From: a virus
Lineage: Duplodnaviria > Heunggongvirae > Uroviricota > Caudoviricetes
Length of the DNA stretch: 64,000 nt
Strand: one strand, 5' to 3'
IMG/VR virus record: IMGVR_UViG_3300032092_002720
Span: 64,001-128,000 of that record
Made by a program: the position numbers and the translations under genes. The notes under the pieces were generated by a model. It saw nothing but the letters and a program-made list of their open reading frames with translations, ran no database searches and was not told the origin of the DNA. Below, one piece after another: positions 3,297-45,431 of the stretch. Within the stretch, counting starts at the first letter, position 1, and the number at the start of each line of letters is the position of its first letter.

Positions 3297-4562
3297 ATGG
3301 CCGGAAGAGATAATCGACTAGTAAATTTAGATAGTCTTAAGAGAGACGCGGGTGGTCTGGTAAACAGAGCCGTAAGGAATTTTACTAATAAACTCGAAGA
3401 CAAACTTGAGAACGCAGTCGAGGATCTTTTTGCCAAAGCATTAAAGAAGGTAGGATTTTCTGATAGACTTGCATCAGAGCTTTCAGCGCGCTTCGGAGAT
3501 TCTTTAACTGCTGGACTCGAAGACAAGTATTTCCAAACATTTACGAGCGAGATGAAGAGAGCATCGTGTGCCGACATTCGTAATAACTTTAATCCGCAGA
3601 ACGGTAATCTTATCGGAGCTTCTCCTAACGCTGAAACATATGTCGACGCTATTCAAAGAGCTTCAAATAAGATTGAAGGTCTTGGTCTGTCAGGAATGCA
3701 ATTCCCTGATCATATCAGTGAGAAGTATTACATGGCATTTAAGTTTAAGAGATATCAGCGACCTTCTCCTCAAACTGCGGCAACTCTTGACTTTGTACAA
3801 GCATTTGCTCTTCCTCTACCGAAAGGCATAAGAGAAAGTTTCGACATTGAAGTTGGCCAAGAATCACAGGGCTTGGCAGGCGGTATTGCGGATGCTGCTC
3901 AATTATATTTGGCTTCTTCAGATGGCGCAGGTAAAACTCAAGCATTAAAAAATGCTGCAGCTGCTCTAGCTTATGGTCAATTGGTGCAAGCAGCCGAAAA
4001 GATAGGCGGTAGCACGATAGGCCAAGCAGTCGGTGCTGTTCCAAATCCTCACATTCAAGCGCTGTTTAGTGGTGTTCCTCTTCGTACACATCGATTCGAA
4101 TGGACTTTTGCGCCTCGAAATGAGAAAGAAAGCCAACAGCTGATGGATCTGCTAAAAGCGATGAAAGCTTATGCGCTACCATCATACAGTAGCTTAGGTA
4201 CTGCTGCACTCGCTTATCCATTCTTGTGTCAGCCAGAACTGAAGATTGCTGGTAGTGCACAGTTAATTAAGTTCCAGCCGTGCTTGATTCAAAGTATCGA
4301 ATTGAACTATTCGCCGCAAGGAATTCCTGCATTCTTCGAAGGCACAAGCCATCCTGCGTTTATCGAAGTTTCAATCACAATGCTTGAAACTCAAATTCAA
4401 ACATCGCGAGATTACGGAAGAGAAGGCGGTGATCGTCTTAGCGCGACATGGGAAACGCTGAAAGGTGAGTTGCAAAAAGGCCTTGATAAGGCTGAGATAC
4501 CTTTCAATATCGATGAAAAGATGAACGAAGGAACAGACGCCATAAGAAACGCTTTAAACTAA
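3297..4562 (+). CDS. gp48: Baseplate tail-tube cap gp48-like
   Basis: ALPLPK, NPH...LF.GV.LRTH.FEWTFAPRNEKES, YP, KF.PC.I.SI..NYSP motifs. Start placed at ATG 3297 after GAGATAAC. Confidence 0.82.
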   Translation: MAGRDNRLVNLDSLKRDAGGLVNRAVRNFTNKLEDKLENAVEDLFAKALKKVGFSDRLASELSARFGDSLTAGLEDKYFQTFTSEMKRASCADIRNNFNPQNGNLIGASPNAETYVDAIQRASNKIEGLGLSGMQFPDHISEKYYMAFKFKRYQRPSPQTAATLDFVQAFALPLPKGIRESFDIEVGQESQGLAGGIADAAQLYLASSDGAGKTQALKNAAAALAYGQLVQAAEKIGGSTIGQAVGAVPNPHIQALFSGVPLRTHRFEWTFAPRNEKESQQLMDLLKAMKAYALPSYSSLGTAALAYPFLCQPELKIAGSAQLIKFQPCLIQSIELNYSPQGIPAFFEGTSHPAFIEVSITMLETQIQTSRDYGREGGDRLSATWETLKGELQKGLDKAEIPFNIDEKMNEGTDAIRNALN

Positions 4563-4574
4563 GAGGAAACTAAG

Positions 4575-5417
4575 ATGGCAAGATATTTTGATAGATTTCC
4601 TATTGTAGACTATGACGGCAGCGTTGCCAAGAACATCTTGGCGCGAGTAGATTTTACTGAAAAGACGAAGAGAGATATTTACTCTACCTTCCAATTTACG
4701 CTCGAAGAAGGCTTCGAGAGACCAGATCTTTTGTCTTATAACTATTATGGATCTTCGAAGTTTGATTGGATGATTTATCTTACGAACAATATCGTGGATC
4801 CTTATTACGACTACTATAAATCTACAGAAGATTTTAAGAATTACATGGAAACAAAGTATGGATCCAATTCGAATGCTCGATCGATTACTCTCTTCTATCG
4901 ATTAAACTGGCATGAAGACGAAAGACTTATTACGATTCAGCAGTATGATTCTCTTATTGCAGATGAAACTGCTAACGCGCGGAAGTATTGGAAGCCTAAA
5001 CTTACAAATACTGGCGCGGTGATCGGTTACGAAAGAATCAAAGAAGAGTGGATAGTATCTACAAATAAAGTATTATCATTGTCTCTGTCTGTCGTCCCAA
5101 CTGGATTCGAAGTTGGAGATAGAGTGTCTCAGACGAGTACTGGAGCATTTGCTACAATCGACTATATTGATCTTGAAAACAATCGCCTGACTGTAAAACA
5201 TGTAAGTGGTACATTTGCAGTGAATGCAGCCGAAGGAATAAGTGAAATAAAAGTATTAAGTCAAAATATACCAGACGCCGAAGCCGAATATTGGTATGCA
5301 GTCAATGCATATGATGATGAGAAAGAAACAAACGAACTCAAGAAAAATGTAGTTGTGTTAAAGTCTTCTTATTTAGCAGAAGTAGAAAAACAATTCATTC
5401 AACAAATAAGCACATAA
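4575..5417 (+). CDS. gp53: Baseplate wedge protein gp53
   Basis: M..YF..FP.VDY start, ERPDLLSY.YYGSS...WMI...NNIVDPY, C-terminal AYD.E.E.NE.K. Confidence 0.88.
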   Translation: MARYFDRFPIVDYDGSVAKNILARVDFTEKTKRDIYSTFQFTLEEGFERPDLLSYNYYGSSKFDWMIYLTNNIVDPYYDYYKSTEDFKNYMETKYGSNSNARSITLFYRLNWHEDERLITIQQYDSLIADETANARKYWKPKLTNTGAVIGYERIKEEWIVSTNKVLSLSLSVVPTGFEVGDRVSQTSTGAFATIDYIDLENNRLTVKHVSGTFAVNAAEGISEIKVLSQNIPDAEAEYWYAVNAYDDEKETNELKKNVVVLKSSYLAEVEKQFIQQIST

Positions 5418-36254: not shown

Positions 36255-39200
36255 ATGACTACACCAGTTAATTTTCGCGTTAAGAACGGGTTAACCGTAG
36301 CGAACGGAATAGCAGTAACAGCCGGAAACGTTGTAATTTCGAGCGGTCAACTCGTGATCGGTGCTACTGCGATCAACTCAACTTCACTCAGCCAATCGGC
36401 TGACAATGCATACGCTAACGGCGTGAACTATGCAGACGGTAAAGCTGCTGATGCTTATACGAATGCTGTAGCTGTAGCTACTGGTTCCTCGACCAATGCA
36501 TATAATAACGCTGTTGCTTTTGCGGCCAATGCCGATAATCTCACAACTGGAACACTTTCTCTCAATCGCCTTCCTGCGACAGTGAACGTATCTCTCGCTC
36601 TGAATGTTACAAATACTGTTAACATTTCAACGAGTAACGTAACTGTTTCACAAGCGAATGATGTCGCGAAGATCACAGGAACCACAATTTCATTAACAGA
36701 CAGTTTAACAGAAACTGGTAATACTTATTATGCAGCAATCTCTCATGATAAACTGATTACAGAAAAAACTTATACTGTTGCCAACGTAATCTATGCAGAT
36801 TACGGCGAACTCTCGCGCACAGGAATGTTTGCAGGTGTAGGTATCGATACGTCTAACACTTCAATCTATGTTCGAGGTGTCACAGTCAATACCTCGGTGA
36901 TTGCGATCGGAAATACTTCAGTATTCAGTTCCATCAACTCGACGGCATTTTCTGGTAACGGCGCATCACTTACTTCTGTCAATGCTGCGACAGTTGGCGG
37001 TAACTCTGCTTCTGACCTTCGAACATATACAGAAACGTATGCATCAAATGCCACGAATCTGACTTCAGGTACAGTCAACTCTGCTCGCCTCCCATCAGCA
37101 AATGCTACCGTAGCAGGTGCAACTCTTCTTGTCGATTCAGTATCGAATACTTCGACGACAGCAGCCGCTTCAGCAGCTTCTGTTAAAACTGCATATGACG
37201 CAGCCATTACTGCAAACACGAATGCGACCAATCTTTCTGCGAATGCATATTCGAATGCTGTAACGTATACTGATAATAAAGCTGCAAATGCATACTCGAA
37301 TGCCATTGCTATCGCAGCGAATGCTACCAACCTCACATCTGGTACTGTCAACGCAGCAAGACTTCCATCTGGTAACTCGACAACTGCAGGCGCAGTGATT
37401 CTTGTCGATTCGATAGCGAACACTTCAACAACTGCAGCCGCTTCTGCTGCAGCTGTAAAAACCGCCTATGATGCTGCCATCGTTGCTAACACAAATGCAA
37501 ACACTGCGTTAACAGCCGCTGGATCTGCATACACGAACGCAGTGTCATATACAGACACCAAAATTGGAACTGCAAACACTGCTATCACTGGCAATGCGGC
37601 GACCGCATATTCGAATGCTGTATCATATACAGATACGAAGATTGCAACTGCTAATACTGCCATGGCCGCTAACGCAGATGCTGCTTATACGAATGCAATC
37701 GCGATCGCTTCCAATGCAACTAATCTGACATCTGGTACAGTTAACTCAGCTCGTCTTCCATCTGGCAACTCAACTGTTGCCGGTGCGGTAGTTCTTGTCG
37801 ACTCGGTCTCGAATACATCGACAACTGCAGCTGCATCTGCCGCTTCAGTCAAATCTGCTTATGACGCAGCGATTACGGCAAACACAAATGCTAACACTGC
37901 ATTGACTGCCGCTGGCTCGGCTTATACCAATGCCGTATCTTATACCGACACAAAGATCGGTACTGCAAATACTGCCATGGTTGCAAATGCCGCTGCAGCT
38001 TACACTAACGCAGTCTCTTACACAGACGGTAAAATCAGTACTGCCAATTCTGCTATTACAGGAAATGCGGCTACCGCTTATAGTAATGCTGTGTCTTATG
38101 TAGATACAAAGATTGGTACTGCCAATACAGCAATGGTAGCAAATGCTGGCGCTGCTTACACAAATGCTGTATCTTATACCGACACGAAGATCGGCACAGC
38201 TAATACAGCGATGGTAGCAAATGCTGGCGCTGCTTACACAAATGCTGTATCTTATACCGACACGAAGATCGGCACAGCTAATACCGCAATGGCTGCTAAC
38301 GCGGCAGCAGCTTATACGAATGCAGTCAGCTATACTGATACAAAAATTGGCACCGCGAACACTGCAATGGCTGCTAACGCAGCTGCAGCTTATACCAATG
38401 CGGTAAGTTACACTGATACGAAGATCGGCACTGCAAATACTGCGATGGTAGCCAATGCCGGAGCCGCTTATACCAATGCGACTATCTTTGCTGCGAATGC
38501 TTCGAATGCAAACAATGGTACTCTTGCTGAAGCTCGTCTTCCATACCGTATGAATCAGGATCTCAGAACTTCTGATTCTCCGACTTTTGCAAACGGCTCG
38601 TTTACTGGTTCTGTTACAGTAGGTGGAAACTTAACCGTAACTGGTAATCTGATTTCGACTAACATCGAATCTTTCTCTGTGTCGGATCCTCTGATCAAGC
38701 TAGGTGTGAATAACCCCGGTGATACTTATTGGGGTGGATTTACATTCCACTATAACGGATCTGGTAATACTACAAACCATGCTGGTCTTGTACGTAGTCC
38801 GACATCAAAAGAATTCCTTCTTATGTCGACGTTTGGTGATGAGACTGCTGTTGCTAATAACAACACGATCAACATTGCTGATGCATCGTTCTCATATGCC
38901 AATTTAACGGTTAATCTATTAAAGGCTGGCAACTCTACGGTATTCTCAAGTATTAATGCTACGTCGTTTACCGGTACAGCAAATAATGCCACGAATGCTT
39001 TCGGTAAGACAGAAGGCGCGATCAATGCTAACTCTGCTCTGACTGCAAACAACTCGACGAATCTTGGCGGTCAAGATGCAGCATACTATACTAATGCGAC
39101 TAATATTAGTACTGGAACTCTACCTTTCGCTAGACTCCCATCGTTGTATCTTGGCACGACTGCTATTCAATCGACGAGTGCTGCTCAAGCTGTAAGCGGT

Positions 39201-40283
39201 ATCACAACTCTTGCGGCTGGTAATACTACCATCTCAGGTTTTGCTAACGTTATAAGTGGATTATCACTTTCTAATGGTACATCAAACTTCATCACTTGGT
39301 CGACAGCCGGTGTTGACGGTCCTTCTATTAATACACGAAGCCCGGGTACTAAGCTATTACTATATCCAGCTCTGTCTGTGAGTCAAACTGATTATGCTAT
39401 GGGTATTAGCCCGGCAACAATGTGGTCTACTGTTCCTACTAACGAAGATAGCTTTAAATTTAAATGGTATGGAGCTGACATAGAAGTTGCTTCTCTGAGT
39501 GGTACTGGTAACTTTAAGATATCTGGATATGCTAACGTATCTGGAGCAATTCAAGGTGGATCATCGCTTACAATTGCAGGTGCCGCTTCTGGTATCACTA
39601 CGCTTGCCGCAGGTAATACTACGATTACCGGAAACCTTAGTGTTTCGAGCGTCGGTAGCTTCGATCGAGTAACTACTGCCAATAATGGCGGTGGAACAAA
39701 TATTGGTATCGGTGATGATGCATGGTTCGGCGATATTAATCAGGCCGATACTGTTCGCATCATGGGTCAACAGAGTGCCAACAACGGATACATTGTTTTC
39801 GGCAATGCTAACAATGACATCAAATTGGGACGTTCTGGAACTGGTGCTCTTACATGGAACGGAGCATTCAGTGTTACTGGCGGACTAACTACTCTGTCAG
39901 CAAACCTTGTGATGGCCAACAACAACATCACGAATCCAACGCTGACAGGTTATACCGAATCTGAAGTTTCAAATACAGCTGTCACAGGAACATATACTCT
40001 TAACTGTGTTGCTTCTAACTTCTGGGATCTTACGCTTACTGGAAATACAACGATCTCTCCAACAGGAGTTCCTCCGAGCACAAGAATGTGGGCTGGAACT
40101 ATCGTAGCAAAACAAGATGCTACCGGTGGTCGCACGATCACTTGGCCGACAGGAAGTAAATATCCTGGCGGTGTAGCTCCTCCTGCAACAACAACCGCAA
40201 ACGCCATCGACGTATGGTCACTCATGACTTATGACGGCGGTACTTCTTGGATTGTTTCTCTGACGGTGAAGGGCGCCGCATAA
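36255..40283 (+). CDS. Long tail-fibre-like protein with a repeat stalk
   Basis: FRVKNGL N-terminus, three fibre repeats (AGA..LVDS.SNTSTTAAASAA.VK.AYD), nine 26-aa repeats and a C-terminal QDATGGRTITWP...PGG.APP...ANAIDV domain. Confidence 0.8.
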   Translation: MTTPVNFRVKNGLTVANGIAVTAGNVVISSGQLVIGATAINSTSLSQSADNAYANGVNYADGKAADAYTNAVAVATGSSTNAYNNAVAFAANADNLTTGTLSLNRLPATVNVSLALNVTNTVNISTSNVTVSQANDVAKITGTTISLTDSLTETGNTYYAAISHDKLITEKTYTVANVIYADYGELSRTGMFAGVGIDTSNTSIYVRGVTVNTSVIAIGNTSVFSSINSTAFSGNGASLTSVNAATVGGNSASDLRTYTETYASNATNLTSGTVNSARLPSANATVAGATLLVDSVSNTSTTAAASAASVKTAYDAAITANTNATNLSANAYSNAVTYTDNKAANAYSNAIAIAANATNLTSGTVNAARLPSGNSTTAGAVILVDSIANTSTTAAASAAAVKTAYDAAIVANTNANTALTAAGSAYTNAVSYTDTKIGTANTAITGNAATAYSNAVSYTDTKIATANTAMAANADAAYTNAIAIASNATNLTSGTVNSARLPSGNSTVAGAVVLVDSVSNTSTTAAASAASVKSAYDAAITANTNANTALTAAGSAYTNAVSYTDTKIGTANTAMVANAAAAYTNAVSYTDGKISTANSAITGNAATAYSNAVSYVDTKIGTANTAMVANAGAAYTNAVSYTDTKIGTANTAMVANAGAAYTNAVSYTDTKIGTANTAMAANAAAAYTNAVSYTDTKIGTANTAMAANAAAAYTNAVSYTDTKIGTANTAMVANAGAAYTNATIFAANASNANNGTLAEARLPYRMNQDLRTSDSPTFANGSFTGSVTVGGNLTVTGNLISTNIESFSVSDPLIKLGVNNPGDTYWGGFTFHYNGSGNTTNHAGLVRSPTSKEFLLMSTFGDETAVANNNTINIADASFSYANLTVNLLKAGNSTVFSSINATSFTGTANNATNAFGKTEGAINANSALTANNSTNLGGQDAAYYTNATNISTGTLPFARLPSLYLGTTAIQSTSAAQAVSGITTLAAGNTTISGFANVISGLSLSNGTSNFITWSTAGVDGPSINTRSPGTKLLLYPALSVSQTDYAMGISPATMWSTVPTNEDSFKFKWYGADIEVASLSGTGNFKISGYANVSGAIQGGSSLTIAGAASGITTLAAGNTTITGNLSVSSVGSFDRVTTANNGGGTNIGIGDDAWFGDINQADTVRIMGQQSANNGYIVFGNANNDIKLGRSGTGALTWNGAFSVTGGLTTLSANLVMANNNITNPTLTGYTESEVSNTAVTGTYTLNCVASNFWDLTLTGNTTISPTGVPPSTRMWAGTIVAKQDATGGRTITWPTGSKYPGGVAPPATTTANAIDVWSLMTYDGGTSWIVSLTVKGAA
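37527..38466 (+). repeat. 26-aa (78-nt) coding repeat, 2 + 7 copies
   Basis: AYTNAVSYTDTKIGTANTAM.ANA.A. 38133-38206 and 38211-38284 are identical over 74 nt. Confidence 0.92.
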
Positions 40284-42331
40284 TGAGTATTGGTGGTGGT
40301 TCGAAGTTTACATTAGAGAAAACATGGCGTGGTGCCGGGACTGGAACAACTAAGTTCAACAGTCCTGGTAACATCACGATTCCTTATGGTAGAAATAGTG
40401 TTCTTGTTTCTGGTAGAGGTGGCACAGGCACAGCTTTGATCCCTGGTCCTGGAACCGGCACATTCAACATCATTCCTGGCAATGCGACTGGCACATTCAA
40501 CATCATTCCAGGAAATGCGACTGGAAACTTTAATATCGTTCCTGGCAATGCGACTGGCACTTTTAATATTGTTCCTGGAAATATAGCCAACTATAATATT
40601 ATCTTTCCTCAGACCGGCAATTTCAATATCATATTCCCGCAGACCGGAGGATTCAACATCGTTCCAGGAAATGCTACTGGCACTTTCAACATTGTTCCAG
40701 GAAATGCAACTGGCAACTTTAATATCATTCCTGGCAATGCAACTGGCAACTTTAACATCGTTCCTGGTAATGCTACTGGCACTTTCAACATTGTTCCAGG
40801 AAATGCCACGGGTACATTTAACATTATTCCTGGTAATATTGCCAGCTACAATATCATTTTCCCAGGAACTGGTACATTCAACAAAGTTCCAGGGAACATA
40901 GCTGGTTATAACATCATTTTCCCTGGAACAGGTACTTTCAATATCATCCCTGGTCCTGTGGCAAACTACAACATCATTTTCCCAGGCACAGGGTCATTCA
41001 ACAAAGTTCCTGGAAACATCTCTGGCTATAACATCGTTTTTCCGGGTACAGGAGCATTTAACATTGTTCCAGGTAATGGTACAGGAACTTTTAACAAAAT
41101 TCCAGGTAATATATCTAGTTACAATATCAATCCGGGTCCAGTGTCAGGCTATAACGTAAATCCAGGCAACGTTTCAGGCTATAACGTAAATCCAGGCAAC
41201 GTGTCAGGCTATAACGTAAATCCAGGCAACGTATCTGGAAGCAATGTTATTCCTGGAAATGCCACCGGCACATACAACTCTGTTCCCGGAAATCGAATTA
41301 ATCCGGCGGTTATTAATCCGAAATTTGGATATTTTGCAGGAAGCTTCAATGCACCGTCTGGTGGTCCTCAGAACTTTAACTCTCCATCAGCAGGTCCTTC
41401 TAACTTTAACTCGCCTACTAATGGTCCTGCAAACTTCAATGCAGCGAGCAATGGTCCTGCAAACTTCAATGCAGCAACCAATGGTCCTGCAAACTTCAAT
41501 GCGCCAACTAATGGCCCTGCAAACTTCAATGCACCGACAAATGGCCCACAAAACTTTAACCCAGCTACCAACGGTCCACAAAACTTCAACGTTGCCAATG
41601 GCCCTGCGAACTTCAATGCACCGACAAATGGCCCACAAAACTTCAACGTTGCGAATGGCCCTGCAAACTTCAATGCGCCAACCGGTGGACCTCAGAACTT
41701 TAACGTTGCCAATGGTCCTGCAAACTTTAATGCACCAACGAACGGTCCACAAAACTTCAACGTAGCCAATGGTCCTGCAAACTTTAACCCTGCCACTAAC
41801 GGGCCTCAGAATTTCAATCCTGCCACTAGCGGTCCGCAGAATTTCAATCCAGCTACTAATGGTCCACAAAACTTTAATCCAGCTGTCGGTGGCCCTCAGA
41901 ATTTCAATCCAGCGACTAATGGACCTCAGAACTTTAACCCAGCTACAAACGGTCCTCAGAACTTTAACGTAGCGAATGGTCCTCAGAACTTTAACGTAGC
42001 GAATGGACCTGCTAACTTTAATCCTGCAACCAATGGTCCTCAGAACTTTAACCCTGCAACTAATGGTCCACAAAACTTTAATCCGGCAACGAATGGACCT
42101 CAGAACTTTAACCCTGCTACCAGCGGACCTCAGAACTTTAATACTCCAACTCCAGCCGTTCCAGGAAATCCGTCAAATACACTTGGTATTACTTTCCCTG
42201 GTTCAAATGCTGGAGGAACGGCTGCACCTGTGATAAATAACCAGATAGCGAGCTACTATGCTTATCCTGATGGCCAATCGCATTCGGTAACTGTGGCTCC
42301 TGGAGGATATATAGATATTACTATTGAATAA
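40283..42331 (+). CDS. Asn/Gly/Pro-rich mirror-repeat protein, 682 aa, probably virion-associated
   Basis: TAATG overlap with the fibre gene gives a start at 40283 (MSIGGG). Non-repetitive ends flank two repeat arms. Confidence 0.85.
   Translation: MSIGGGSKFTLEKTWRGAGTGTTKFNSPGNITIPYGRNSVLVSGRGGTGTALIPGPGTGTFNIIPGNATGTFNIIPGNATGNFNIVPGNATGTFNIVPGNIANYNIIFPQTGNFNIIFPQTGGFNIVPGNATGTFNIVPGNATGNFNIIPGNATGNFNIVPGNATGTFNIVPGNATGTFNIIPGNIASYNIIFPGTGTFNKVPGNIAGYNIIFPGTGTFNIIPGPVANYNIIFPGTGSFNKVPGNISGYNIVFPGTGAFNIVPGNGTGTFNKIPGNISSYNINPGPVSGYNVNPGNVSGYNVNPGNVSGYNVNPGNVSGSNVIPGNATGTYNSVPGNRINPAVINPKFGYFAGSFNAPSGGPQNFNSPSAGPSNFNSPTNGPANFNAASNGPANFNAATNGPANFNAPTNGPANFNAPTNGPQNFNPATNGPQNFNVANGPANFNAPTNGPQNFNVANGPANFNAPTGGPQNFNVANGPANFNAPTNGPQNFNVANGPANFNPATNGPQNFNPATSGPQNFNPATNGPQNFNPAVGGPQNFNPATNGPQNFNPATNGPQNFNVANGPQNFNVANGPANFNPATNGPQNFNPATNGPQNFNPATNGPQNFNPATSGPQNFNTPTPAVPGNPSNTLGITFPGSNAGGTAAPVINNQIASYYAYPDGQSHSVTVAPGGYIDITIE
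40463..41302 (+). repeat. Repeat arm 1: 27 units of (F/Y)N-xx-PGN-... (10-11 aa)
   Basis: Ten 11-mers plus seventeen 10-mers give 280 aa, which matches the 840-nt span. Confidence 0.92.
41345..42136 (+). repeat. Repeat arm 2: 27 units of FN-xxx-NGP-(Q/A)N (9-10 aa)
   Basis: Twenty-one 10-mers plus six 9-mers give 264 aa, which matches the 792-nt span. Confidence 0.92.
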
Positions 42332-42353: not shown

Positions 42354-42947
42354 ATGCCATATATTATTCCTAAATATGGGAAGCAATTAAATTGTTTCGC
42401 GGTGTGGACAGGAGGATTTACTCCTGAAGAAGTCGATATGATCATCGACTTAGAAAAGCTCCAAGAATTTGAAAAGGGTAAAGTTGGGCTCGAGCAAAAT
42501 GCTGCGGCTCCTGCACATACGCGTGATTCTGATATCTCATGGATCCATCATGATCATCACAGCGATTGGCTCTTTAATAGAATGTCTGGAATTGTATCGA
42601 CTGTCAACTACGATCACTTTATGTATGACATCGAAGGAGTCGAGGCTTTTCAATATACAAAATACGGACCAAATCAACACTACACTTGGCACTGGGATGT
42701 TGAGTTCGGCTGGCAGAAATATATAAGAAAGATATCGGCATCTCTTCTTCTCTCAGATCCTGATGAGTATGAAGGCGGAGAGCTAGAGATTGTAAACAAT
42801 GGAAACTTTGAAGATAAAGTCTCGTTTAAACCGAATAAAGGTGATATCGTATTCTTCGCTTCATGGATGCCACATCGAGTGAAGCCAATCACATCAGGAA
42901 CGCGTAAGAGTCTTGTAGCATGGGTAATGGGTGAAAGAGAATGTTGA
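42354..42947 (+). CDS. 2OG-Fe(II) oxygenase, prolyl-4-hydroxylase-like
   Basis: Q.T.Y.....Y.WHWD (HxD), RKISASLLLSDP.EYEGGEL, F.S...HRV.P.TSGTRKSLV.W. Confidence 0.92.
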   Translation: MPYIIPKYGKQLNCFAVWTGGFTPEEVDMIIDLEKLQEFEKGKVGLEQNAAAPAHTRDSDISWIHHDHHSDWLFNRMSGIVSTVNYDHFMYDIEGVEAFQYTKYGPNQHYTWHWDVEFGWQKYIRKISASLLLSDPDEYEGGELEIVNNGNFEDKVSFKPNKGDIVFFASWMPHRVKPITSGTRKSLVAWVMGEREC

Positions 42948-43678
42948 GTTGGAATCCTTTTAAGAAGAAACCTATCATTGAGTTTTATTGTCATCGAGAT
43001 GACGTAGCCAGTTTGCCGCATCCAAAGCCTGCAGCTAAACATATACCTGAATGGTATAAAAGAATTCCTCCGCTCATTACAGACGGCCGAGACGATCGTG
43101 ATTGGTCAGGATCACATAGTTTTACTGCAAAAAAATGCATGCCAATGATAGACGCCATGTCGTTGGGTTATGTCATTCCTCTTATCGCCGACATGACAGT
43201 CAGATCAAATCATGACTGTAGTACGATCGAAGTGACATCTTCTCCTCACATCACTGTATGTGAGTTTCATGACATTCGGCAACTCGGAGAAAGATCTGCT
43301 CCAGGATTTCCTGCTCCACCTTTAAAGTTCGTTAATCCATGGATCGTAAAGACTGCTCCAGGTTGGTCTACACTTTTTATAGCGCCGATTAACAACTTTG
43401 AAAGTCATTTTACTTGCTTATCTGGATTGGTCGATACTGATACATATCCAAAGGAAGTCAATTTCCCTGCAATCTGGCATACTCCAAATGCTGACGTGCT
43501 TCTGCCTGCTGGAACTCCATTGGTCATCGCTATCCCAATTAAGCGCGATGCAGTCCCATCAAAGCCTACGATAAGAGATATGAAAGAACCAGAACAACAC
43601 TTGATCAATCTCATATCGAAGATGCAAAACACGCGCAGAAGTGTATATACAAAAGAACTGAGAGCACCCAGAAAATGA
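42941..43678 (+). CDS. Conserved hypothetical protein (possibly DUF6065-like), paralog 1
   Basis: IPEWYK, KKCMP..DA..LGY.IP, KF.NPW..KT.PGWS.LF and G.VDTD.Y...VNFP. The family name is recalled, not verified. Confidence 0.55.
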   Translation: MLSWNPFKKKPIIEFYCHRDDVASLPHPKPAAKHIPEWYKRIPPLITDGRDDRDWSGSHSFTAKKCMPMIDAMSLGYVIPLIADMTVRSNHDCSTIEVTSSPHITVCEFHDIRQLGERSAPGFPAPPLKFVNPWIVKTAPGWSTLFIAPINNFESHFTCLSGLVDTDTYPKEVNFPAIWHTPNADVLLPAGTPLVIAIPIKRDAVPSKPTIRDMKEPEQHLINLISKMQNTRRSVYTKELRAPRK

Positions 43679-44415
43679 AAGATCTGTTTTCTTTTTTAAA
43701 ACCGAAAAAAGATATCGAATTCGTAGATACGAAGAAATTATCTTATCATAACTTTTCTGTCGAACGAGCTGTTGATGTTCCAACAAACACTCGTAAAGTC
43801 CAACAAGACAAGTATGGTAAACATCTGATGCCATACTGTCCCGGAATTTTAGATTATGCCCAATTCGGGTATATCATTCCAGCTTGGGTAGACATTCATA
43901 TTATGGCAAACAAAGCTGGCACTTCATGGTATCTTGGAGATAAAGGTGCTAGAGGAGATCGTGGTTTTGACAACGGCGTGAAGATGGATGAAAAGTTTGT
44001 AGAAGGTGCATTTACTCCTATTGGAATTAATCCTACTGCAATCTTGTTTCCATCGCCTTGGAAAATCTTTACACAAAAAAACATCAGCGCATTGTTAATG
44101 CCAGCATTCTACCACTCTACCTTTCTCGATGATCTATACGTGACGCCAGGTTTGGTAGATTATAAAAACTTTCATATCACAAACTTCATCTGTATGCCGA
44201 AGAGAGAATGTAACGTTCATATCAAAGCAGGCGAACCTTTACTACATGTCATTCCTTTCCTTAATAAAGATATTAGTGCTTCAGTTGGTCCTGCTACAGA
44301 TGAGATGATAGATAAAACTGCAAATCTAATTCCTGGAGATGATAAGCAATACTATCGGAAGTTTATGGGAATTAAAAAGAAATTTAATATGCAAAAAGAA
44401 GAGATTAAACAATGA
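43675..44415 (+). CDS. Conserved hypothetical protein, paralog 2
   Basis: CPGILDYAQFGYIIP, FPSPWKIFT, PG.VDY..F...NF and AGEPLLHVIP align by eye with paralog 1. Confidence 0.55.
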   Translation: MKDLFSFLKPKKDIEFVDTKKLSYHNFSVERAVDVPTNTRKVQQDKYGKHLMPYCPGILDYAQFGYIIPAWVDIHIMANKAGTSWYLGDKGARGDRGFDNGVKMDEKFVEGAFTPIGINPTAILFPSPWKIFTQKNISALLMPAFYHSTFLDDLYVTPGLVDYKNFHITNFICMPKRECNVHIKAGEPLLHVIPFLNKDISASVGPATDEMIDKTANLIPGDDKQYYRKFMGIKKKFNMQKEEIKQ

Positions 44416-45431
44416 ACATTTTTGTTTCAGTATGCTCGTACCAAGATCCTTTACTTCCTCATACTATCAAGAGTATGATGCAGACCAAATCAAATAGAAA
44501 CAACGTAGTCTATTCGATCTTCGAGCAGACGCGGTTCGAGGATTCTTTGGCTTGCACAGAGCCTGTGCTTGTAAATAGAGATGATGTCATCTATAAAAGA
44601 ATTGATCCAGAATATTCTGATGGCTGTGTTTGGGCAAGATACCTTAACTTGTTAAACGTAACAAATGAGTACGACTTTATCTATCAAGTCGACTCTCACA
44701 TGCTACATGACATGAACTGGGATCGCTCTCTTGTTGAAGATTATAAGAGAGCAATGGATATGGCTGGAACGAACAAAGTAATCATTACTGGTTCGTGTAA
44801 ATCATTTACGATTGAAGAAAAAGATGGGGAAATTAAAACGTATCCTCAGCATGAAGTCAACGATGCATGTCAAGTAAAGTACTACACTATCGATCCTCAT
44901 AATTTTATTCCAGACGTTCACGGCGATAATATTCCTTCGACTGATATGCCGAGACCTGCATTCCATATTATGGCTGGCAACTTCTTCACACACACCGATT
45001 GGCTCGATGAAGTTGGTTTAGATCCAAAGATATTCTTCCGCGGAGAAGAAATAATGATGACGATGATGTCATATGCGGCTGGATATAAGATGTTCCATCA
45101 TAGTAAGATGGTATCATATCATCTTGAGAACACTCGAAACTGGCATACGAAGACTCCACCAGAAAATGTAAAAGCTGCCCGAAGAAGAGAAATCTTGGCT
45201 GAAATTGGTATATGGAGATGGAAGCAGTATCTCGAAACTTGCAGAGAAGATCTCCTTTCCGAGTTCCATAAAGAATTCGGTGTAGACTTTATTAACTTAG
45301 AAATTGAAGAGCGCGCAAAGACTTATAGTCTCGATGCTATCGGTGGAGTTGATATCCTCGCTATTTCGAAGAAACCAAAGAAGAAAGTAAAGCTGCCTAA
45401 AACTCTTTTCATGAGTGAAGACGAAGAATGA
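44412..45431 (+). CDS. GlcNAc transferase resembling Skp1-hydroxyproline Gnt1 (GT60-like)
   Basis: IFVS..SY.DP.L..TI, G..WAR, Q.DSHM....WD..L, AG.FF....L.EV..DP..FF.GEE and GY..FH. Confidence 0.8.
   Translation: MNIFVSVCSYQDPLLPHTIKSMMQTKSNRNNVVYSIFEQTRFEDSLACTEPVLVNRDDVIYKRIDPEYSDGCVWARYLNLLNVTNEYDFIYQVDSHMLHDMNWDRSLVEDYKRAMDMAGTNKVIITGSCKSFTIEEKDGEIKTYPQHEVNDACQVKYYTIDPHNFIPDVHGDNIPSTDMPRPAFHIMAGNFFTHTDWLDEVGLDPKIFFRGEEIMMTMMSYAAGYKMFHHSKMVSYHLENTRNWHTKTPPENVKAARRREILAEIGIWRWKQYLETCREDLLSEFHKEFGVDFINLEIEERAKTYSLDAIGGVDILAISKKPKKKVKLPKTLFMSEDEE

Follow-up and report, generated by a model that had tools for sequence, protein, structure and literature searches.

Within the 64,000-nucleotide stretch of tailed-phage DNA analysed here (the window, positions 64,001 to 128,000 of IMG/VR record IMGVR_UViG_3300032092_002720), one gene, referred to below as the hairpin gene, encodes a repeat protein, P0001, in which two long arrays of repeat units mirror each other unit for unit. 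This protein is best explained as a fold-back, fibre-like structure in which the chain runs out through the first array (arm 1) and back through the second (arm 2), with the arms apposed antiparallel and a base domain shared by both ends of the chain. We assign this architecture a probability of roughly 0.78. The mirrored order of the units, taken together with N- and C-terminal pieces that are modelled with confidence and align jointly to single domains, makes it most likely that the chain runs out and back in register.

A preliminary description of the gene, made from its letters, had divided the protein into 27 units, a 14-residue turn and another 27 units, and this anatomy was reproduced exactly by translation and by splitting the protein at its (F/Y/S)N unit starts. 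The arms comprise 280 (arm 1) and 264 (arm 2) residues, 53% of which are Asn, Pro or Gly. The protein as a whole contains no Cys and a single His (residue 667, in the base domain). Variants of the YNIIFP type are found in arm 1 at units 5, 6, 13, 15, 17 and 19, while the 9-residue FNVANGP variants of arm 2 are units 9, 11, 13, 15, 22 and 23, or 19, 17, 15, 13, 6 and 5 when counted from the base. All six variants of one kind had been said to face all six of the other when unit i is paired with unit 28 − i, and they do so when the protein is parsed afresh.

The mirror is fuller than first reported. When the units of each arm are sorted into four classes, arm 1 reads AAACBBAAAAACBCBCBCBACDDDDAC and arm 2, read backwards, aaaabbaaaaaabcbcbcbacddddcc, so that 24 of the 27 mirrored pairs agree; sorting into three classes gives the same number. 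This level of agreement is found only in the antiparallel register at offset 0; the runner-up register has 14 matches out of 25, and no parallel register exceeds 10. A score as high as 24 was never obtained by shuffling, either in 1,000,000 shuffles of the units or in 200,000 run-preserving shuffles. Each class has a preferred partner across the mirror: the 11-residue FNIVPGNATGT pairs with FNPATNGPQN, the YNIIFP type with the 9-residue FNVANGP, the FNKVPGNISG type with FNAPTNGPQN, and YNVNPGNVSG with FNxxxNGPAN. At the level of residues, the mutual information of paired units sums to 7.5 bits in register versus 4.3–5.7 bits in six shifted controls, and the strongest link connects the tail of the arm-1 unit to the head of the arm-2 unit, as antiparallel apposition predicts. 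As backing for antiparallel pairing of the units, this co-variation is suggestive only.

The mirror does not reside in the DNA. The arms share no similarity, direct or inverted, beyond chance words of 9–14 nt, which agrees with the earlier statement that they are not DNA inverted repeats, and a DNA-level origin of the mirror was rejected for this reason. The arms had also been called near reversals of each other in sequence. This holds as to direction, since reversed arm 1 aligns with arm 2 at 106 bits (35% identity) and forward arm 1 at only 80 bits (31%), but the effect is small. To our knowledge, there is no mutational mechanism able to generate such a mirror. Since the arms have no DNA relation and no generating mechanism is known, selection on the protein is the simplest reading.

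The same mirror is seen in relatives of the window protein. A scan of IMG/VR yielded 53 loci, among them ten distinct close relatives with 57–88% identity that are simple hairpins of differing length (Table 1). Their unit counts were corrected by hand at the irregular tip and, in L019, also for a first unit that had been dropped by the parser. These proteins have 13 to 27 units per arm, with equal counts in nine of the ten and arms within one unit of each other in the tenth (L019). Six different variant patterns occur among the window protein and its close relatives, every one of them mirrored. With the units sorted into three classes, the mirrored matches range from 13 of 17 to 22 of 24, values reached by 0 to 88 of 100,000 shuffles, and shifted and parallel registers are clearly worse than the mirrored one. 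In L004, units 3–4 are of a PGPVAN type in arm 1 and face units of a GPAN type in arm 2, at a position where the window protein has an A:a pair.

Table 1. Unit counts and positions of mirrored variants in the window protein and its close relatives
Protein	Units (arm 1:arm 2)	Variants
Window, L003	27:27	YNIIFP-type units from N-terminal base = 9-residue units from C-terminal base: 5, 6, 13, 15, 17, 19
L024	27:27	mirrored at 5, 6, 10, 15, 17
L004	27:27	mirrored at 5, 6, 13, 15, 17
L006, L007, L008	24:24	mirrored at 5, 6, 14, 16
L009	21:21	mirrored at 9, 10
L019	20–21:21	mirrored at 5, 6, 7, 11, 15, 17
L023	18:18	absent from both arms
L029	13:13	absent from both arms

The wider family was collected by a word-indexed search and an exhaustive profile search. 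At E ≤ 0.001, these yielded representatives of 203 clusters at 50% identity; none is a named protein, and their sources are metagenomes or viral contigs throughout. Every full-length member keeps the N-terminal FxLEKTWR...FNSPGN...G(R/K)GG and the C-terminal LGVxFPG...YYxYPD...GGYVTI pieces. Between these conserved ends lie arrays of 8–14-residue units, which in many members are interrupted by aromatic or Cys-rich modules, and the position of the tip is taken by a (P/I)K(F/Y)G turn or by an aromatic or Cys-rich module. Automatic segmentation into repeats and modules was too noisy, and alignment anchors and hand counts were used instead. The proposal in the preliminary description that homologues collected by their ends would have equal unit counts and mirrored variants was borne out in the close relatives and in the other clades.

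In the P0010 clade (17 proteins), the order of parts is base, R1, M1, R2, M2, R3, M3, R4, base. R2 and R3, the arrays that flank the tip module M2, correlate in length with r = 0.99, while R1 and R4 are constant, and R2:R3 counts of 2:2, 3:3, 4:4, 5:5 or 6:6 units are found. A tree made from the constant parts of these proteins requires at least eight length changes, all of which are matched. In P0002, both arms carry a matched additional shaft-plus-knob. The P0036 clade consists of short hairpins with an aromatic turn and counts of 5:5, 6:6, 6:6, 5:5, 5:5, 6:6, 6:6, 3:3 and 2:2; its four IMG/VR members are all 6:6.

Variant units are likewise found in mirrored positions in this and other parts of the family. 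A 14-residue variant is second from the tip in both arms of P0179, which belongs to the P0036 clade, a variant unit adjoins the tip in both arms of L055 (4:4), and L051 has 8-residue units at positions 2, 6 and 8 of both arms. In L034, the 8-residue units are at 4, 7, 12 and 17 in both arms if the YN-less TTPGTVAT is taken as unit 1 of arm 1; if it is not counted, arm 1 reads 3, 6, 11 and 16. L033 has six LN units opposite six 12-mers, with 10-mers facing 12-mers and a total of 15:15, and L035 has seven LN units opposite seven 12-mers in a total of 14:14. In P0049 (323 aa), each arm has one unit with a single Cys (unit 5 from the base in arm 1, about unit 7 in arm 2), a hint that some members may have a disulfide between the arms.

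The non-repetitive ends of the protein had been described as two halves of one small β domain, and structure prediction supports this. AlphaFold2 monomers were modelled for P0001 (with a 32-sequence alignment) and P0036 (247 aa, 36 sequences). In both, only residues ~20–50 and the last ~60 residues are confident, with a predicted local distance difference test score (pLDDT) above 90; per piece, the scores for P0001 are 83–96 for residues 21–50 and 84–97 for the C-terminal piece. Once the low-confidence arms are trimmed, 75–90 residues of the N and C pieces together (spanning 12–247) align to single-domain β-sandwiches or jelly rolls, including a nanovirus capsid protein, nucleoplasmin, C1q/TNF-type jelly rolls and ALK, at Z 4–6. 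The C1q/TNF jelly rolls and ALK (7nx3) score Z 4.2–4.4 and other β-sandwiches Z 5–5.8, with 5.8 the best. The N and C ends most likely form one domain, as predicted from these models, in which no N–C contacts could be inspected.

Several observations weigh against the fold-back architecture. Arms of unequal length are found in P0181 (6:4), P0183 (2:7) and P0184 (2:4), all singleton clusters on metagenome contigs of 2.5–6 kb, and the arms of P0003 and P0078 differ by about 2–3 units. The arms of P0032 are near-identical direct repeats and are not mirrored. In the AlphaFold2 models, the arms of P0001 and P0036 have a pLDDT of 35–60; it is ~60 for arm 1, which is built as a parallel stack with a short strand per unit, and ~36 for arm 2, with no readable contacts between the arms, and an ESMFold2 trimer of P0036 scored 0.00, a no-answer value that is evidence neither way. 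Paired units are often unequal in length (11 versus 10, 10 versus 9 or 10 versus 12 residues), so that most units would have to bulge if the arms formed a simple, flat ribbon of two strands. Moreover, co-variation is blind to whether the pairing occurs within a chain or between the chains of an oligomer, and both the location of the protein in the virion and its modification are predictions from gene context.

In the P0032 protein (401 aa, from a 2.3-kb JGI contig), the two arms are direct repeats of ~70 residues, ~90% identical, on either side of a CPSP-containing module, and they are equal in length. A further protein with unequal arms, P0185 (3:6), is a chimeric assembly: the first 90 residues at its N-terminus bear no relation to the family, and distally it is identical to the L043 gene (6:6, 4001–4831). 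Nine IMG/VR contigs (L013, L022 and L025–L031) start or end at the hairpin gene, eight of them inside it and L013 ~70 nt upstream, showing that assemblies are fragile at this gene. Its repeats evidently break short-read assemblies, which is relevant to the unequal-arm singletons. The other exceptions could be artefacts or else genuine but short-lived intermediates, and the mirror rule is strong but perhaps not absolute. A balance between PGN-type and SGGN-type units irrespective of arm was also tried as an explanation for the unequal singletons, but by hand count it fails for P0181 and P0184.

Equal arms would also be expected if each arm folded alone as a rod or solenoid, for example a β-roll with two units per coil, and the two were tied together at base and tip, in which case equal length would be a constraint of closure and no sign of close contact between individual units. 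The parallel stack modelled for arm 1 resembles generic β-helix and leucine-rich-repeat solenoids (Z 8–9, which is within noise for repeats), and several proteins have a two-unit super-period (BCBCBCB in the window protein, alternating types in P0179 and P0180). The arms are also matched in unit number and not in residue number, and tblastn links arm 2 to phage proteins that carry a pentapeptide-repeat annotation. However, closure would give equal lengths but not a specific mirrored partner for each variant in at least six patterns, the solenoid model is of low confidence, and the Pfam scan contains no pentapeptide or RTX match. We therefore consider it unlikely that the arms are separate solenoids.

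A mirrored pattern could, in addition, arise between molecules, with arm 1 of one chain paired to arm 2 of its neighbour in a dimer or trimer whose shaft is swapped or interdigitated. Trimers are the usual state of phage fibres, the weak similarity of the base domain to TNF/C1q-type jelly rolls connects it to proteins that trimerise, and co-variation would be the same for either kind of contact. Nevertheless, since the turn is just 14 residues long and the models place both end pieces of a single chain in one domain, pairing within the chain is simplest, and the intermolecular arrangement is improbable. The high Asn/Pro/Gly content of the arms, their low pLDDT and the adjoining hydroxylase and glycosyltransferase genes would all suit an unstructured or polyproline-II-like, possibly glycosylated spacer without contact between the arms, whose symmetry was a by-product of repeat generation. 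This is strongly disfavoured and the least credible of the readings, because the arms lack the DNA similarity through which a duplication or inversion could have copied the pattern in mirror order, and because the mirror rule has survived numerous independent changes and holds from clade to clade.

In the preferred fold-back architecture, the chain would leave a small β-sandwich base, run along arm 1, turn at the 14-residue tip and return via arm 2, and the N- and C-terminal pieces would complete one base domain. The arms would be antiparallel and in register, each unit of arm 1 facing the arm-2 unit that has the same number when arm 1 is counted from the N-terminal and arm 2 from the C-terminal base; the co-variation shows such units to be partners. 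The conserved base would dock on the virion, probably on the fibre encoded upstream, and the variable shaft and tip (an aromatic turn here, Cys-rich or aromatic knobs in relatives) would project outward. The variable, host-facing part of the protein would then be encoded in the middle of the gene.

The length of the shaft would be adjusted by units gained or lost in step in the two arms. The gene encodes the distal halves of both arms and the tip in one uninterrupted central tract, so that one replacement or deletion there alters both arms together, and matched changes would be easiest through exchange or deletion of this tract. P0042 resembles the product of such a central deletion, with 2:2 units and a hybrid unit as the new turn. 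A layered shaft is conceivable because it is unit number, not residue number, that is conserved between the arms. The shaft may thus be a stack of layers with one unit from each arm, ~13 nm long for 27 layers at cross-β spacing, or it may be an extended ribbon with regular bulges and a length of up to ~90 nm. The stacked and the extended two-stranded forms are equally possible.

The hairpin gene sits in a conserved neighbourhood (Table 2). The preliminary description had noted a TAATG coupling to the upstream fibre gene, and this is real: the ATG of the hairpin gene overlaps the TAA of the fibre gene (GCATAATGAGT). The fibre gene itself contains, at 37920–38488, about seven tandem copies of a 78-nt (26-aa) unit of the AYTNAVSYTDTKIGTANTAM type, with degenerate copies further upstream. 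By BLAST, a fibre C-terminal end is found directly upstream of the hairpin gene in 23 of 43 loci, and the upstream genes of L001 and L002, the two loci looked up, encode a PF26209 C-terminal domain. On the other side, the PF13640 oxygenase gene starts no more than 120 nt from the end of the hairpin gene in 47 of 48 loci, both DUF6065 genes are present in 46 of 48, and the PF11397 N-acetylglucosamine (GlcNAc) transferase gene in 40 of 48. The conserved order is fibre gene, hairpin gene, prolyl-4-hydroxylase-like gene, two DUF6065 genes and GlcNAc transferase gene.

Table 2. Features of the hairpin gene and its neighbours in the window
Feature	Position	Strand	Description
Upstream fibre protein	36255..40283	+	1342 aa; 26-aa tandem repeats; C-terminal 110 aa match PHROG 9017 'tail fiber protein'
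P0001, whole open reading frame	40283..42331	+	682 aa; proposed fold-back repeat protein
N-terminal half of base domain	40283..40462	+	residues 1–60, non-repetitive; conserved FxLEKTWR...FNSPGN...G(R/K)GG
Arm 1 (outbound)	40463..41302	+	residues 61–340; 27 units of 11 or 10 aa; consensus (F/Y)N-(I/V)(I/V)-PGN-xxx(x)
Tip turn	41303..41344	+	residues 341–354; 14 aa, PAVINPKFGYFAGS
Arm 2 (return)	41345..42136	+	residues 355–618; 27 units of 10 or 9 aa; consensus FN-xxx-NGP-xN
C-terminal half of base domain and stop codon	42137..42331	+	residues 619–682, non-repetitive; conserved LG(I/V)xFPG...YYxYPD...V.V..GGY.xI
2-Oxoglutarate-Fe(II) oxygenase, prolyl-4-hydroxylase type	42354..42947	+	PF13640
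Two tandem DUF6065/PHROG 7084 paralogues	42941..43678, 43675..44415	+	Pfam/PHROG match
'GlcNAc' glycosyltransferase, Skp1-hydroxyproline GlcNAc transferase family	44412..45431	+	PF11397

The cassette of oxygenase, DUF6065 and transferase genes is 85–97% identical among close relatives, far above the identity of the hairpin gene, and its linkage is kept even where the base domain is only 40–55% identical. In view of this persistent linkage, the Pro-rich shaft (89 Pro) is a plausible substrate of the prolyl-4-hydroxylase-like and GlcNAc-transferase gene products. Most arm-1 units lack Pro in some relatives (L009 and L023), so that any modification would be expected mainly in arm 2. The position of the gene, the conserved base and the hypervariable shaft and tip suggest that the protein is a virion appendage or adhesin mounted by its base.

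The wider window also carries baseplate, fibre, terminase and sheath-sized genes, and within the explanation given here the virus is a T4-like myovirus. Its terminase is at most 57% identical to the terminases of T4-like Synechococcus phages, and psbA (PF00124) was not found in the 75%-complete record (128,766 bases); for these reasons, the host cannot be called a cyanobacterium.

Database searches connect the hairpin protein to no named family. In Pfam and PHROG, all matches were either spurious or unnamed (phrog_22415 and DUF3224, the latter with zero accepted stretches), and the family profile had no match at E ≤ 1 among all PDB sequences. A nucleotide search of a phage collection gave no match, nor did tblastn of P0013 against it, and tblastn of P0001 retrieved only low-complexity 'pentapeptide' proteins of Caulobacter phages. 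Classification as a pentapeptide repeat protein was rejected, as the Pfam scan contains no pentapeptide family and the annotated phage proteins match only arm 2, at 26–32% identity. Rejected as well were a collagen-like, polyglycine-II or polyproline-II bundle, since the units are mostly 10 and 11 residues long and Gly is irregularly spaced, and an RTX β-roll, since GGxGxDxUx nonapeptides are absent from the sequence and there is no Pfam match. Literature, motif and keyword searches found no paper describing a long regular shaft made of two repeat families paired unit for unit.

Fold-back segments are known from other phage fibres. In the crystal structure of the gp37 tip reported by Bartual and colleagues in 2010, the chain is said to run out to the tip and back. 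The distal needle of the T4 long tail fibre protein gp37 holds seven iron atoms by means of histidines (PMC6957217). If folded as proposed, the hairpin protein would resemble this needle in being a fibre part with apposed outbound and return segments that bear paired, repeated motifs. It differs in that it has no His-x-His motifs and no His in the arms, that its family has no sequence relation to any PDB chain, and that its shaft is a regular array of up to 27 paired units of 9–11 residues, with a distinct unit family in each arm, whereas in gp37 only a short stretch at the C-terminus of the long fibre forms the needle.

A separate, possible likeness is to the ALK/LTK glycine-rich domain (PF12810) and to the Gly_rich_2 domain of phage tail fibres (PF21722), where strands on both sides of a long, low-complexity, out-and-back insertion make up a small, TNF-like jelly-roll base. 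Both feature-based and shape-based neighbours of the hairpin protein in the ESM-Atlas are ALK_LTK_GRD proteins and phage tail-fibre proteins with Gly_rich_2, with feature scores of 0.85 and template-modelling (TM) scores of 0.26–0.33. However, the hairpin arms are not glycine tracts, and their periods of 8–12 residues do not fit the 3-residue period of polyglycine II. The PF21722 and PF12810 profiles matched none of 36 family members at E ≤ 0.1, and PF21722 gave nothing at E ≤ 10 in the window's genome. With the atlas values just given and Z scores below 5, kinship to these domains amounts to leads only.

In gene position, the closest parallel is with the gp38-type adhesins of T2- and S16-like phages, the gene for which, reportedly (Dunne and colleagues, 2018), directly follows the distal fibre gene. 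Both kinds of gene lie immediately downstream of a long fibre gene and encode a conserved attachment part with a highly variable remainder. This likeness suggests, by analogy, that the hairpin protein is attached to the fibre as a protein of its own. Neither sequence nor profile searches link the two, and the variable part is a long paired repeat shaft here, not a compact polyglycine sandwich. The reasoning from the pattern of change is that used for RNA stems with compensatory base changes, in which pairing is likewise revealed by concerted, mirrored changes across relatives, although the paired elements in this case are protein units of 8–14 residues with class-specific partners, not bases.

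Since fold-back modules are already known in phage fibres, what was not found described is the paired shaft made of two families of units with family-wide compensatory indels, and there is a fair chance that the fold itself is new. Tentatively, it may be pictured as a previously undescribed fold, a 'zipper' formed by two arms of one chain that differ in chemistry and lock unit by unit, with 2 to 27 rungs set by matched indels, a host-specificity tip encoded mid-gene and a shaft that is hydroxylated on proline and glycosylated by the products of the downstream genes; taken as a whole, this picture is doubtful. If it is true, a Skp1-type modification pathway acts on a virion protein. Cyanophage-like genomes contain puzzling genes for prolyl hydroxylases and glycosyltransferases, and the shaft is a concrete candidate for their substrate.

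Protein contacts can rarely be read from sequence by eye. In this family, compensatory changes at the level of whole units define the topology without a structure, much as co-variation does for RNA, and the recurrence of the same mirror rule in dozens of relatives, whose arms range from 2 to 27 units, is strong evolutionary evidence for a fold-back, paired shaft. The family, for which there is neither a Pfam model nor a solved relative nor any literature, probably lies at the host-recognition end of T4-like phages from marine and freshwater environments. It offers a natural system for the evolution of tandem repeats under a pairing constraint and possibly a new fibre or adhesin architecture of tunable length.

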